Part shown: positions 100-5,707 of the stretch, piece by piece
Layout: each line of letters starts with the position of its first letter
Numbering within the stretch: position 1 is the first letter of the stretch
IMG/VR virus record: IMGVR_UViG_3300045988_011488
DNA: 5,707 bases
Reading direction: 5' to 3' (one strand)
DNA from: a virus
The notes under the pieces: generated by a model
Database searches by the model: none
Seen by the model: the letters and a program-made list of their open reading frames with translations, nothing else
Told to the model about the DNA's origin: nothing
Translations under genes and position numbers: made by a program

Positions 100-162
100 C
101 GAACTGCCTCTAATTGAGTTTTCAACACTTTCAACACTTTCAACAGGTTTTCCACAAAAAGT

Positions 163-182
163 TGCACAAATGGTTTTGTGCA
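163..182. other. Perfect hairpin: 8-bp stem tgcacaaa / tttgtgca, loop tggt
   Basis: 163-170 is the exact reverse complement of 175-182. Both arms carry a xxxTGCACA DnaA-box-like core. Confidence 0.6.
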
Positions 183-211
183 TATTGCTACACTTTCAAC
201 AATTCAACAAT

Positions 212-220
212 TTATCCACA
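212..220 (+). promoter_or_regulatory. Perfect consensus DnaA box TTATCCACA
   Basis: Exact 9/9 match to the canonical bacterial DnaA box (E. coli R1/R4 sequence). Confidence 0.6.
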
Positions 221-298
221 AAATTATCAACATTAAAATGAACCATAAAATATCGTTTTGCGGATAAAAATTCATAGTATTCAACATTTCAACACTCC

Positions 299-319
299 CT
301 ACTACTACGACTACAACAA
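299..319 (-). promoter_or_regulatory. Trinucleotide run resembling DnaA-trios (minus strand 5'-TTG TTG TAG TCG TAG TAG TAG-3')
   Basis: The plus strand reads CTA CTA CTA CGA CTA CAA CAA. Four of seven units are the preferred trio 5'-TAG-3' (3'-GAT-5'). The run lies 4 nt from paired boxes (278-294), separated by ctcc (295-298) with c299 opening the first unit, and directly abuts a pure A/T tract. Confidence 0.45.
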
Positions 320-320
320 G

Positions 321-342
321 TTAATAATAATATAATAAAAAT
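321..342. other. 22-bp 100% A/T tract (candidate DNA unwinding element)
   Basis: ttaataataatataataaaaat contains no G or C. It is flanked by the trinucleotide run on one side and a GC-alternating block on the other. Confidence 0.5.
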
Positions 343-384
343 CGTGCGTGTACGTGCGCAATTATGCGCGCGTGCGCGCGCGTG
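343..384. repeat. Alternating pyrimidine-purine (CG/TG) tracts forming a 40-bp imperfect palindrome
   Basis: 343-360 (18 nt) and 363-384 (22 nt) alternate Y-R perfectly. Arm 343-360 pairs with arm 365-382 around the loop atta: 14 Watson-Crick pairs and 4 G-T pairs when read on the plus strand. Confidence 0.7.
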
Positions 385-390
385 TTGATA

Positions 391-444
391 AAACTAAAAA
401 ACACTCAGCCAAGTATATATACTTGATAGTTACTTGGCTGAGTG
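391..444 (-). terminator. Rho-independent terminator downstream of VP4
   Basis: On the minus strand, 10 nt after the VP4 stop, there is a perfect 14-bp stem CACTCAGCCAAGTA / TACTTGGCTGAGTG (444-431 / 415-402) with a 15-nt loop. It is followed by TTTTTTAGTTT (401-391). Confidence 0.7.
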
Positions 445-453
445 ACACCAGGG

Positions 454-1473
454 CTAAAAAATGCCCTTTGCTTTGGACATCTTCTTCTTCATGACCGCTT
501 CTTTATCGGCCAGTTGTTCGGCGTACTGTTTGTCAGTTTTCATGTTTCTTTCGATTAGGGATGCTATGGCTTTTTCTTGTCGATATTGCTTGATTCTCCA
601 TGCCTTTTCAGGATTTTCTGCTTCCAGTTTTCGCCAATAATATTCTGGAATGGCTGCTCTCTTGCCGTTTGTCAGCTGGATGTATCCAAGTTGCCATAGC
701 CTTTCTTGATTCTTTTGAAACCATTCGTCCCCGAGTCCTGGCTTTCGGCTCATTACGCAGAATGGCGGTATGAGCCCCATTTTCTTGTACCTGTCTCTGT
801 CGTTTCCGTACAGCTTCTTGGTCACATATCCAGCTACGTAGTTATATGTTTCTGGCGTTGCTTGAGCTATATCAACTGTCCCTTGTCCCCAGACTTTGAC
901 CAGTTTATCGCTCGTGTAGTGTCCAAACCTTGACAGCTTGTGAATTGGCTTTAAGTCGTCTGGATACCATCCGTATAGTATCATGTGATAGTGTGGTCTT
1001 GAGGTGTTGTCTCCATACTCTCCGGCTAAGAAGTATCTGAGAGGCTCGTTGACGGCCTTTCTGAGCCTTTTCATGAATAACTGGACATCCTCCACGCTTA
1101 AGGTTTGCACCGTTCTGGGACGCTCTGAGGCGCCTTTCCATACGTTCACGCCTCCCTTGAAGATTTCCCCTGTTTCTGCGTCCTGTGTCGGCACGTGGTC
1201 GTCATCATAGGTTAATGTTATAAACCAGATGCTTTCCTTGTCGTGGCTGTATGCTTCTAGCTCCATCCGTGTGGCCCAGTCTTTGCGTTTGCGTAGTTTG
1301 CATCCTGTGCATTGTCCACACGGTATCATCATTACATCTTTGCGATACATCAGGTCTTCATATCGCATTTTGGTTTTATGAACTTCGTTAAAAGAAGCGA
1401 GTGAGTATACTCGCCCACTCGCTTCCCTGTCGTGAGGTACATAAAACCGGATTAACGGTTTATTGCATCCCAT
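454..1473 (-). CDS. VP4: Replication initiation protein VP4 (HUH endonuclease, phiX174 gpA-like), 339 aa
   Basis: The ORF has an ATG start. Rep motifs are present: FITLTY (motif 1), PHYHMILYG (HUH motif 2) and YNYVAGYVTKK (two-tyrosine motif 3; compare phiX174 gpA YVAKYVNKK). The Cys-rich N-terminal PCGQCTGCKLRKRKDWATR is typical of gokushovirus VP4. The start abuts the VP2 stop (TAAATG). Confidence 0.93.
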   Translation of the reverse strand: MGCNKPLIRFYVPHDREASGRVYSLASFNEVHKTKMRYEDLMYRKDVMMIPCGQCTGCKLRKRKDWATRMELEAYSHDKESIWFITLTYDDDHVPTQDAETGEIFKGGVNVWKGASERPRTVQTLSVEDVQLFMKRLRKAVNEPLRYFLAGEYGDNTSRPHYHMILYGWYPDDLKPIHKLSRFGHYTSDKLVKVWGQGTVDIAQATPETYNYVAGYVTKKLYGNDRDRYKKMGLIPPFCVMSRKPGLGDEWFQKNQERLWQLGYIQLTNGKRAAIPEYYWRKLEAENPEKAWRIKQYRQEKAIASLIERNMKTDKQYAEQLADKEAVMKKKMSKAKGIF

Positions 1474-2322
1474 TTATTTTAGTTTTCCTTTCCAAAATTC
1501 GACGTTTTTGTTTCCGATGAAGTCTCTTCCCGGTTTGTATTCTAACTCATCTTTCTTCGGTTTTCTCCCTGCGCCTCCGCCGACGCCATTGTTTAGGTTG
1601 CTGAGGTCGTTGAAGACGTTCTTGAATGCATTAAACGCTTTGTCTGCGCTTGTGTGGGACCAGCTTGTAGCGTCTCCAACCGCTTGTGCTGCGTTGTACC
1701 AGTTGCTTTCGCTTTTGCTCCATGTGTTGTTGTGGTTCTGGCTTACTCCGAGAGCGCTTGCAGTCGCCGCACTGCTGCTTGCGAGTCCCATGCTTGCCCC
1801 GCTGATAGTGGCTTGTGCGCCTCCTGGAGTGCTTGCTCCTCCCTGTTGGTATGCCAAGATAGGGTTGATTCCTGCTTTTCGCATATCTTCCACGGCTCGC
1901 TGATAAGCTGTGCTGCTCATTTGCTCTTGCCAAGCTCTGTTTTTGGCTGCTTCTGCGCTGTTGTAGGCCATTGCCGCGTTGTTGCTTATCTGGTTATATA
2001 CACCCTGAGTGATTGCTGCCATGGTGTTATAGCCCATTTGTTCGAACATGCTCCGACGGTTAAATCTTTGCTGGCTTTGCATGCTTCCCTTGATCGCTGC
2101 TAGCATGCTGTTCCAGTCTTGCAGGTTCTGTTCTCGGTTTACGCCGCTGGCGGCGCTGCTTTGGCCGCCTCCCTGGCTCAAACTTTCGTTGTGCTGACTG
2201 CTCCCCCCGTTGCTTTCCATCAGATTTCCGCCCAGGAATTTGTTTATGAGTCCTCCGGCGATTGTCGGGAGTAGTTGTTTTCCGATTCCGAGCAGTGCGC
2301 TGCCGATTGCTGCTAACGCCAT
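1474..2322 (-). CDS. VP2: Minor capsid / DNA pilot protein VP2, 282 aa
   Basis: It lies between VP1 and VP4, as in gokushoviruses. It has a hydrophobic N-terminus ([26 protein letters not shown]) and a Gly/Ser/Gln/Ala-rich low-complexity body. The segment [20 protein letters not shown] resembles the conserved VP2 core as I recall it. Confidence 0.8.
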
Positions 2323-2363: not shown

Positions 2364-4028
2364 TTAGTGATGGTCTACGAGGCCCGGAATGCTGTACATT
2401 GGCATTGGTCTCACAGATGTATTGTCAATGACGGTGTCCACGATAAACTGAGGTTCATTGTCTACCGCCAGAGTTCTTTGAATTTCAGAGTCTCCTTCCT
2501 TCATCCAAGCTTGGCTCAGGCTCGGAGTCTCTTTGTAGTTGTCGCCGTAGTGCCAGCTGTCCAGAGTCCCCGTTGCATTTGAACGGAACTTGCCGCTGAT
2601 GCGGTTTGGTTTCATCCGATACTCTGCCCATGCTTCCTGATAACCAAAGGCCTGTTCGTCGGTGTCTGTACCAGTGAGATACAGCTCCTTCTTCAGAATA
2701 GCCTGCTCTCCCAGATTTGCGAAGACGGGATAATAAAAATCCAGATTCGTCTTGCGGCTCCACATGCGCTCCAAGCCCTGTTGGTAGGTATGGTCATGCC
2801 GGATGCAGCACACGCCGATGACATAGCCGTGCTCTTCGAAGCTCTTCGTGAACATGTTGCCGTTGTACGGCGTAACACTGATTGCCGCGGCGTTGCCCTG
2901 CGGACTCTCCTGTGTCGTGCCGCTGGTCTGAATAACCTGGCTCATGTTGATAGTGATGCGTGTACCGCCCAGATACTCCGGAATTTGCACCGTCTTATCG
3001 CTGATTTTCGTATGGAACAGCGAATAAATCATCTCGCGGTAACGGCTGCCACCTCGCGCCAGCTGTTCATAGTACTTCTGTATCTGGAATGCCTGCCTCA
3101 GTTGATTGATGGTTGTTGCCGTTGCTTCTTCCAGGTTTGCGCCCAGGAAGTGCATGTTATCTCCCGATGCCATGCTTATAGATCTTCCATTGTACATGCT
3201 GTCGTATTGGTACGACATTGGGCCTGGCCAGCTGTAGTTTCCATCCAGTTTTGCCAGTTTCGTTAAATTTCTGTCTTCGTATACTGATATGTCGGCTACA
3301 CCGTTTATCGGGATTTTTACCGGTTCTCCCGCTTTCTGAGGGGAAGGCAAAGCCGATGTGAAGTAGTCGTGGTCCTTATTTATCGGCAGCGGTCTGCCGC
3401 CGGTGTATGCGTTTTGGAGAATATACTCAAGGTCAGGCTTCTCTGTGTCCATGCCCTTTGTTTCATCATCCGTATAGTTTACGGTTGCGTCCTCGGTGCT
3501 GTTGATGGCCGGATTGTCCACGTTCTGGTCTCGGAACCACTCCTGCCAAATCATAGCGTATGCGCGGAACGGCAGTGCGTTAACGCTGAAGGCTGTACTT
3601 TCTCCCTTGCTCACCTTGGTAGGAATGCCCATGTAATCCATGATGCTTCCTTCATAAGGCGCCGGCTTGTCAGCTGTGCCAGTTACTTTGACCTGCGGAA
3701 TGGTGTATTCCTGAGTCTGCGCCCACGGCCCGGTATCGTTTTCGCCCATAAATCGTTTGAAATGGTCCCAGATGATACGGCACGGTACGTTGAAGTAGTA
3801 AATATCCATGTGGCAGTTGTCCATAACCGGGAAGATAGGCGTTGTCATACGGATAATTGCCGCTTGGTCGATGCTGAAGGTATCGCCGGGCATCACCTCA
3901 TCCACATAAAACGGGATGAGTTGGCCCGCGTTCATCGTTAGTTTTACATCCTGCCGCCGTTTGAAGCGACTTCGTGTAATATCCAGTCTCGGAACTTGGT
4001 TAAACCCTGCGTCTTTGTTCCTGTTCAT
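2364..4028 (-). CDS. VP1: Major capsid protein VP1 (Microviridae F-like), 554 aa
   Basis: This is the longest ORF. The N-terminal [43 protein letters not shown] is characteristic of Microviridae major capsid proteins. SD AAAGGAGG (GGAGG at 4043-4039) lies 10 nt before the ATG. The ATG overlaps the VP3 stop (ATGA). Confidence 0.95.
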
Positions 4029-5608: not shown

Positions 5609-5707
5609 ATTTTTTTTGAAAAAAGTTAGAAGAATTTTGTCTTGAAGGTCATGCGCTAGGCGCGGTGCGCCGTACGAAGAGCATGACGTGGCTTTCCGGC
5701 TAGCTGC
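5609..5707. repeat. Terminal direct repeat, copy 2 (identical to 1-99)
   Basis: Same 99-nt string as 1-99. The window ends inside the repeat, as expected for a k-mer overlap of a circular contig. Confidence 0.9.

Follow-up and report, generated by a model that had tools for sequence, protein, structure and literature searches.

The stretch analysed here (IMG/VR record IMGVR_UViG_3300045988_011488, 5,707 nucleotides, hereafter the window) is a gokushovirus genome whose non-coding region carries tandem sites resembling the DnaA boxes of bacterial chromosome origins. The element at positions 119-342 has the sequence make-up of the basal unwinding system (BUS) of Firmicutes, provided that a host-type box is allowed. 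We read it as a phage-borne copy or mimic of the host chromosome-origin BUS, which would open the double-stranded replicative form (RF) for helicase and replisome loading; on the sequence evidence, this reading is given slightly less than an even chance. The broader claim that host DnaA binds the array, summed over BUS-driven theta replication and two readings weighed below (a DnaA-assisted Rep nick and titration of DnaA), is regarded as probable with good confidence. An earlier, sequence-only reading of the window reported five DnaA boxes at 148-391; the proximal box pair, the DnaA-trios and the AT-rich unwinding element (278-342), which are key parts of the module, were absent from it.

Anatomy of the element

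The defining parts of a BUS are two co-oriented boxes, about 4 bp of spacer, three or more DnaA-trios and an AT-rich element; its boxes differ from the box of the species by at most two mismatches, lie 0-16 bp from the trios and usually form a co-oriented tandem (PMC8287927, section 13; PMC10721633). The corresponding parts of the window and their surroundings are listed below.

119-156, plus strand: distal array A, four co-oriented sites (TTTTCAACA 119-127, CTTTCAACA 128-136, CTTTCAACA 137-145, TTTTCCACA 148-156)
163-182: small hairpin TGCACAAA-TGGT-TTTGTGCA, between arrays A and B
193-232, plus strand: distal array B (CTTTCAACA 193-201, AATTCAACA 201-209, TTATCCACA 212-220, TTATCAACA 224-232)
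233-277: variable A-rich spacer, containing TTATCCGCA on the minus strand (259-267)
278-294, plus strand: proximal box pair, TATTCAACA 278-286 and ATTTCAACA 286-294, with TTCAACA cores at 280 and 288
295-298, plus strand: spacer CTCC, joining the proximal box to the first trio
299-313, minus strand: DnaA-trio block; the plus strand reads CTA CTA CTA CGA CTA, the minus strand 3'-GAT GAT GAT GCT GAT-5'
311-323: phage-specific motif CTACAACAAGTTA, with CAACAAG at 314-320, between the trios and the AT-rich element
321-342: AT-rich element TTAATAATAATATAATAAAAAT, 22 nt, 22/22 A+T; predicted duplex-unwinding site
344-383: GC-rich hairpin of alternating purines and pyrimidines, 17-18 bp stem, loop ATTA, directly beyond the AT-rich element

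The spacer CTCC is short and GC-rich, as in a BUS, and the spacers of related phages (CTCC, GCCC, GTGC, CCCC and others) resemble those of the bacterial origins described below (cccc, gccc, tacc). The trio block comprises three perfect trios, one off-consensus trio and one more, and fits the DnaA-trio consensus; at least three trios of the form 3'-(G/A)A(T/A)-5' lie opposite the 5'-TTATCCACA-3' box strand. Its polarity is that of bacterial dnaA-dnaN origins and of the Clostridioides difficile trio, published as 5'-CACCTACTACTATTACTACTATGA-3', which the window matches in text and polarity (PMC7561715). The AT-rich element follows at 321-342; A+T content averages 75% over the 25 nt that come after CAACAAG in 141 distinct modules.

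The proximal 9-mers of the window show three mismatches each to the canonical TTATCCACA and one or two to TTTTCAACA, the type found in Oscillospiraceae origins. Across the same 141 modules, the 9-mer ending 4 nt ahead of the trios is most often ATTTCAACA (35 modules), followed by the canonical box TTTTCCACA (34), TTTTCCACT (15), TTTTCAACA (8) and TTTTTCACA (5).

At the position of the GC-rich hairpin, the sequence folds far better than its shuffles in 86% of 132 distinct modules. The modules inspected carry long, GC-rich hairpins here, mostly of 17-23 bp, with differing sequences; it is the predicted structure, not the sequence, that is conserved. The bacterial origins displayed showed no GC hairpin after the AT-rich run. 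In the phages, the hairpin could act as a complementary-strand origin, as a cruciform, or as a clamp limiting unwinding. The small hairpin at 163-182 obtained a terminator-like score on the minus strand, and distant relatives have unrelated palindromes at its place (e.g., CGTCATTTTGACG in L042).

Counterparts at bacterial dnaA-dnaN origins

A scan of one genome per bacterial species for three TTTCAACA in short range returned at least 120 loci. Among the 120 loci listed, 16 were at a dnaA locus; the array lay upstream of dnaA in one (L108) and within the dnaA-dnaN spacer in the other 15. These were nearly all from gut Clostridia (Oscillospiraceae, Ruminococcus, Anaerofilum, Eubacteriales). Pfam searches identified DnaA and/or the beta clamp in six loci, with both flanks recognised in L078, L095, L136 and L170, and no microvirus genes were present in the 120 loci listed. 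As the loci had been selected for TTTCAACA arrays, the arrays themselves are no evidence; their location and the parts downstream of them are.

In the dnaA-dnaN spacers, TTCAACA sites outnumber TTCCACA sites and are mostly co-oriented. In about eight loci, a single or paired box is followed by a short spacer, CTACTAC trios and an AT-rich run, the array ending, for example, in TTCAACAgtTTCAACAccccCTACTACTACTAC before AT-rich DNA just ahead of dnaN. The text CTACTACTAC(GAC/TAC) precedes dnaN in L078, L085, L095, L115, L136, L138 and L170, and the trio text CTACTACTACGACT is common to the phage window and L136, L138 and L140. Under a strict pattern (box, 0-3 nt, box, 3-5 nt, three CTA), the window has a single match, at 280; across 850 kb of these bacterial loci, matches were confined to three of the origins and one other origin-like site. 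The TTCAACA family as a whole is best explained as a host DnaA-box variant, because the same arrays sit between bacterial dnaA and dnaN. Similarity between phage and bacterial origins is at the level of motifs (at most 31 nt at 97%); it fits capture and convergence alike.

The DnaA proteins of these bacteria differ in domain IV. Among the 16 bacteria, P423 was replaced in all 16, T435S was found in 15 (A in L152) and H439Y in 12, while the DnaA proteins of Escherichia coli (1J1V) and Bacillus subtilis (8BTG) have P, T and H at 423, 435 and 439. These are reportedly three of the six base-contacting residues in the structure of Fujikawa 2003. The changes would fit an altered box preference, roughly TTTTC-N-ACA, although they are suggestive only. 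The 9-mer TTTTCAACA is the main box in 14 dnaA-dnaN origins (L051, L078, L085, L092, L093, L095, L113, L115, L136, L138, L152, L159, L164, L170), and its use in Clostridia of the Oscillospiraceae/Ruminococcus type looks like an undescribed DnaA-box specificity.

Two of the bacterial loci were unusual. In L138 (Oscillospiraceae metagenome-assembled genome, MAG, JAFULT010000130), the dnaA-dnaN spacer is enlarged by an inserted small open reading frame (ORF; ...YILSNWNNQVIYTGVTNNLERRVYEHKNK..., GIY-YIG-like by eye) with flanking direct repeats of about 150 nt. L147 (MAG labelled Mesoaciditoga, WGFY01000063) has a full TTCAACA array at about 2430-2790, with box-box-gtac-CTACTACTAC and an AT-rich run, and neither dnaA nor dnaN was detectable within its 8-kb locus. 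Mis-binning of the contig, a displaced origin or a different replicon could account for this array.

Box arrays, their conservation and their spread

The TTCAACA sites, which resemble iterons, and the DnaA-type boxes TT(A/T)TCCACA form a single site family by sequence, since the two interchange at homologous positions in relatives, where TTTTCAACA, TTTTCCACA, TTATCCACA and TTTTTCACA alternate. The window holds ten sites of this family, all on the plus strand, with cores at 121, 130, 139, 150, 195, 203, 214, 226, 280 and 288. The heptamer TTC(A/C)ACA was found eight times in 100-300, against 0.36 expected, and not once on either strand of the 5107 coding nt of the window.

The five 9-mers of the sequence-only reading were all present at the positions and on the strands reported. 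Their conservation was assessed among close relatives (30 IMG/VR genomes were retrieved through the Rep protein, 28 with the intergenic region aligned, which gave 27 usable rows), counting boxes with at most one mismatch:

148-156, plus strand: 8/9 box TTTTCCACA; kept in 27/27, and replaced by TTTTCAACA in several distant relatives
212-220, plus strand: exact box TTATCCACA; kept in 24/27, with TTTTCAACA in the other three; relatives read TTATCCACA, TTTTCCACA, TTGTCCACA or TTTTCAACA
224-232, plus strand: 8/9 box TTATCAACA; kept in 7/27; the conserved element is TCAACA, and relatives read (T/G)TATCAACA or TTTCAACA
259-267, minus strand: 8/9 box TTATCCGCA, inside the variable spacer; kept in 2/27
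383-391, minus strand: 8/9 box TTATCAACA, outside the conserved module; kept in 3/27

By these alignments, the sites at 148 and 212 are conserved DnaA-type boxes and 224 is an iteron-type site of the TTCAACA family. The inverted boxes at 259 and 383 are incidental and specific to the window genome, because so few close relatives keep them. The spacer 233-277, in which the former lies, is among the least conserved stretches of the module (mean majority fraction 0.908, below every box, trio and core segment).

DnaA-box clusters have been defined as at least three boxes with at most one mismatch and a mean spacing below 100 bp (PMC7561715). The boxes at 148, 212, 224, 259(-) and 383(-) form such a cluster, of which only 148 and 212 are conserved. 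Comparative evidence supports the proposal of an oriC-like DnaA-binding cluster, more strongly than the earlier reading had supposed, but not its extent of 148-391: the unit covers about 119-342, and 259-267 and 383-391 fall out of it. Enrichment against composition-matched shuffles, which had been suggested as a check, was significant. Dinucleotide-preserving shuffles of 100-400, which retain its AT-rich composition, gave a mean of 0.10 and a maximum of 2 boxes, and none of 5000 reached the observed five; the rough chance estimate of about 0.06 made earlier was of the right order. Over the whole window, seven box matches were found against 0.96 expected, and none of 200 shuffles got to seven. 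Where a single outlying 9-mer had been noticed (1312-1320), there are in fact two 8/9 matches, TTGTCCACA at 1312-1320 and TCATCCACA at 3898-3906.

The module extends well beyond the close relatives of the window. With blastn, region 118-330 was found in many gokushoviruses with no remaining match in their coding DNA; in 20 distant genomes, Rep was 32-57% and the major capsid protein VP1 41-70% identical to the window, while the module DNA was 70-93% identical. In one genome (L035, KT264799), the upstream arrays are missing and the module consists of the proximal site pair, the trios, CAACAAG and the AT-rich run; judged by sequence, this core is the most widely conserved piece of the module.

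A scan of IMG/VR for CTACTACNNCTACAACAAGT, combined with loci found earlier, gave lower bounds for its spread. At least 142 microvirus genomes carry the core, with VP1 identities of 39-95% and Rep identities of 30-96%. Among the matches listed, the 230 bases upstream hold a median of seven TTCAACA and one TT(C/T)CACA, with about zero on the reverse strand, and the 15 non-microvirus matches were coding repeats essentially without upstream boxes. The box strand of the module is opposite to the genes in 114/142 of the genomes listed, as in the window, and the same as the genes in 28/142. Most of these 28 belong to one clade (Rep identity about 34%), in which the annotated members L044-L046 have the module between VP2 and VP4.

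No box cluster, trios or TTCAACA arrays were found in Chp2, phiMH2K, SpV4 and two distant IMG/VR microviruses. Given this absence, the module is, by sequence comparison, a lineage-specific acquisition. The canonical pattern TCCACA-(0-16)-CTACTACTA proved too permissive in IMG/VR; after filtering, it returned only the same phage family and three non-microvirus contigs, and so gives no ground for generalising to other microviruses.

Base composition at 4-fold sites was compared for the whole window genome and loci L001-L050 and L171-L284. The AT skew of the coding strand was +0.55 and +0.59 in the two module-orientation classes, with no flip. Coding strands of module-bearing gokushoviruses are strongly A-rich and T-poor at these sites (AT skew about +0.55; A 0.34 and T 0.14 in the window). 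Chp2 and two module-less microviruses are T-rich there (-0.35 to -0.58).

The genome itself is circular and 5608 bases long, because positions 1-99 recur exactly at 5609-5707 as a 99-base terminal redundancy. Its closest GenBank records are gut gokushoviruses of humans, pigs and monkeys. The long ORFs lie without exception on the minus strand, and the non-coding stretch runs from 5560 across the junction to 453:

402-444: terminator hairpin of Rep (VP4)
454-1473, minus strand: Rep/VP4 (PF23343; motifs HYHMILYG and YVAGYVTKK)
1474-2322, minus strand: VP2
2364-4028, minus strand: major capsid protein VP1 (Phage_F, E 6e-141)
reaching 5559, minus strand: scaffold VP3, VP5 and small ORFs
5368-5340, minus strand: strong promoter-like site, TTGAAA-17-TATAAT, extended -10
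5607-5579, minus strand: strong promoter-like site, TTGACT-17-TACAAT, extended -10

The two promoter-like sites are likely start points of the gene cluster. Being located in a microvirus genome, with the terminator of VP4 on one side and the first promoter on the other, the element is not a chromosomal oriC. A GC-rich imperfect palindrome, GTCATGCGCTAGGCGCGGTGCGCCGTACGAAGAGCATGAC, stands at 40-79 (again at 5648-5687), between the box arrays and the first promoter. A known RNA family was rejected as the identity of the module, its sole Rfam match being below threshold (17.5 bits against a gathering score of 114). A blastn search of PLSDB for plasmid origin relatives gave no match.

Proposed function, alternatives and known systems

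From the anatomy of the element, its conservation and its match to dnaA-dnaN origins, all of them observed, we infer the steps of DnaA binding, unwinding and downstream use as follows. The ten co-oriented 9-mers TT(A/T)TC(A/C)ACA on the double-stranded RF would be sites for host DnaA, the TTCAACA form being the DnaA-box variant at oriC of Oscillospiraceae-type gut Clostridia. DnaA on the proximal pair (278-294), aided by the distal arrays (119-232), would seed an ATP-DnaA oligomer on the minus-strand trios (299-313), and the duplex would open at the adjoining A+T stretch (321-342). The opened site would load the host helicase and replisome for DnaA-dependent theta-type replication of the RF, with the HUH Rep (VP4) reserved for progeny single strands. 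Even where identity has dropped to 30% in Rep and 39% in VP1, the sites are unchanged. The occurrence of the module in either orientation and at two genomic positions, and a synonymous-site skew that does not flip with it, would both fit an element acting at the level of the duplex.

Several points weigh against this reading. The 9-mer TTTTCAACA is not a documented DnaA box, and the role of DnaA is deduced from sequence; its C-to-A change affects position 6, one of the conserved positions of the E. coli consensus TTWTNCACA. As noted above, the proximal pair of the window departs from TTATCCACA at three positions in each 9-mer, and the spacing of its cores is 8 bp, where bacterial origins and phages of the L044-L046 type have 9 bp. 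In the fourth trio (CGA), the middle adenine that is conserved on the trio strand is missing. The likeness to bacterial origins remains one of motifs. The putative host (Oscillospiraceae/Ruminococcus type) is suggested by motif grammar alone: no prophage, CRISPR or isolate link was found, and an exact protein look-up of VP1 gave metagenomic contigs only. The phage keeps an intact rolling-circle Rep, and such a Rep is classically sufficient for RF replication in phiX174. Finally, two conserved phage-specific parts, CTACAACAAGTTA and the GC hairpin, are not explained by the model.

The first of these parts is the basis of a serious, though rather improbable, alternative in which DnaA assists rolling-circle initiation. 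Here DnaA would melt the origin so that the HUH protein VP4 nicks at CTACAACAAGTTA, a candidate Rep recognition or nick site; the target would be presented in single-stranded form, on the displaced plus strand or on the minus strand just past the DnaA filament. The phiX174 A protein requires a melted, supercoiled origin, and VP4 has phiX174-A-like motifs (HYHMILYG and YVAGYVTKK). The motif lies exactly between the trios and the AT-rich element, where CAACAAG separates the last good trio from the unwinding site; the bacterial origins checked are without CAACAAG. Within the motif, CTACAACAAG is present in 19/20 distant relatives found by BLAST (L049 has CTTCAACAAG), with a variable TTA after it, and is absent downstream of the trios in the 15 bacterial origins checked.

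The motif also resembles the phiX174 origin decamer CAACTTGATA (CAACTTG^ATA) at 7/10 positions, with no longer similarity. However, the match is equal on both strands (CAACAAGTTA on plus, TAACTTGTTG on minus), as a short near-palindrome, here AACAAGTT, gives by chance. AAC(A/T)(A/T)GTT is missing from Chp2, phiMH2K, SpV4 and the two distant microviruses, and is therefore not a general gokushovirus Rep site. Moreover, in the 28 of at least 142 genomes where the module is inverted relative to the genes, an internal nick site would mean that the opposite strand is packaged, yet the 4-fold-site skew is alike in both classes; this argument is weak, as selection may drive the skew.

An unlikely explanation is that the array serves as a datA-like sink or decoy. 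Many RF copies with about ten boxes each would titrate host DnaA and thereby block or retime initiation of the host chromosome, or DnaA on the boxes would regulate phage transcription, with no role as an origin. The dense co-oriented cluster would suit such a function, which would also be independent of orientation, and initiation in B. subtilis is disturbed by plasmids with additional DnaA-box clusters. However, titration needs boxes only, while the strict conservation of the spacer, trios and AT-rich run and the survival of the bare core in L035 speak for unwinding. Promoter regulation by the boxes, which the sequence-only reading had entertained, is not favoured either: the nearest gene-strand promoter-like site (5607-5579) is more than 110 bases from the array.

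It is improbable that a phage protein (VP4 or the product of a small ORF) uses the TTCAACA repeats as its iterons, as in circoviruses, geminiviruses and pMV158, with the DnaA-like 9-mers accidental. Rolling-circle replicons often have Rep-binding direct repeats near the nick site, and some sites, spaced by 8-9 bp, are packed more closely than in classic DnaA-box arrays. In contrast, bacterial dnaA-dnaN origins have identical arrays and no microvirus genes in their vicinity, the repeats do not co-vary with Rep (30-96% identity) and swap with the canonical TTTTCCACA and TTATCCACA, and gokushoviruses of other hosts (Chp2, phiMH2K, SpV4) are without them. Rep-specific iterons were rejected on the absence of co-variation and the presence of the same repeats at bacterial origins. 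The suspicion that the 9-mers are the tail of a TTCAACA iteron family bound by another protein was accordingly half right: they belong to that family, as shown by their interchange in relatives, but another protein is disfavoured.

Binding of a different host factor such as Spo0A, tying phage replication to the sporulation state as in phi29, is very improbable. TTCAACA is one mismatch from the 0A box TTCGACA, which stands at the trio-proximal position of one bacterial origin (L152), and 0A and DnaA boxes overlap in B. subtilis oriC, with 0A boxes also in phi29. However, CG is the conserved 0A core, and the differing base is A in 7/7 TTCAACA copies of the window, C in the TTCCACA and ATCCACA sites, and predominantly A in relatives (TTTTCAACA makes up 370 of about 556 family 9-mers). 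In relatives, canonical DnaA boxes stand in the place of these sites, and the site 4 nt from the trios corresponds in position to DnaA-box 7. Spo0A boxes are unlikely on the strength of the seven A-containing copies and this substitution.

Under the preferred reading, a phage-borne BUS, a bolder and on balance doubtful extension is that a gut gokushovirus lineage acquired the complete opening module of its host. The RF would then behave as a DnaA-controlled minichromosome, and a supposedly 'lytic' phage would persist and be inherited plasmid-like, with no lysogeny, in dividing Oscillospiraceae, Rep acting only for progeny strands. Rep-driven rolling-circle replication has its textbook example in the Microviridae; with a conserved DnaA unwinding module of host type in at least 142 genomes, a major gut lineage would also rely on the host initiator or exploit it, and replication, host range and gut persistence would have to be rethought. 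If the reading is true, TTTTCAACA represents an unrecognised DnaA-box specificity tied to P423X, T435S and H439Y in a very abundant human gut family, and origin finders searching TTATCCACA would miss this apparent box variant of abundant gut bacteria. For phages with no cultured host, the module would also allow the host to be predicted from sequence (Oscillospiraceae and Ruminococcus-type Clostridia), and it would provide a compact natural substrate of about 225 bp for the unwinding-system model outside the chromosome.

In the literature searched, no paper connects Microviridae or gokushoviruses with DnaA boxes, a looser search on Microviridae, DnaA and oriC brought up no Microviridae paper, and none of the DnaA-trio papers listed deals with a phage-borne BUS. 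A host-type DnaA unwinding module in gokushoviruses thus has no earlier description that we found, while its kind, the BUS, is already known.

Among known systems, the R6K 'A site' described by Masai and Arai is reportedly a DnaA-box hairpin on which the ABC-primosome assembles on single-stranded DNA. In the window, 256-268 is a 12/13 inverted repeat of 211-223, so that either strand, when single, can fold with 212-220 paired to 259-267 and the perfect box TTATCCACA in the stem. However, this repeat occurs in the window genome and very few relatives, the pairing partner being kept in only 2/27, and the other boxes are direct repeats that cannot be duplex in single-stranded DNA. A single-strand A site was rejected as a family feature for the lack of a conserved partner.

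The phiX174 origin (a conserved 30-bp sequence with CAACTTG^ATATTAATAAC..., cut by the A protein) likewise has a short CAAC..G motif beside an AT-rich stretch, and its Rep shares the motif YxxxYxxKK. It differs in that the match is only 7/10 and equal on both strands, and in that the phage motif lies outside the rep gene.

P1 oriR, F oriS, pSC101 and RK2 oriV are generally known as mobile replicons that borrow host DnaA through boxes beside an AT-rich unwinding element. Unlike the phage, they use an iteron-binding initiator of their own (RepA, TrfA) and one to a few DnaA boxes, whereas the phage encodes no such initiator, its repeats resemble host DnaA boxes and trios are present. Like the phage RF as proposed here, minichromosomes and plasmids based on oriC are extrachromosomal circles whose initiation would be run entirely by host DnaA; the phage module is about 225 bp long, is without dnaA and coexists with a rolling-circle Rep.

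The closest known systems also include the Firmicutes BUS (B. subtilis incC, C. difficile oriC2 and the dnaA-dnaN spacers L078, L085, L095, L115, L136, L138 and L170). The phage module sits in a 5.6-kb single-stranded DNA phage with an HUH Rep and not by dnaA/dnaN, and has an extra invariant CAACAAG, a long GC hairpin, either orientation and cores spaced by 8 instead of 9 bp. It shares with them the co-oriented box pair, the GC-rich spacer of about 4 nt, the CTA trios on the TT..ACA strand with an AT-rich run directly after them, and additional boxes at a distance of 60-170 bp on the upstream side.

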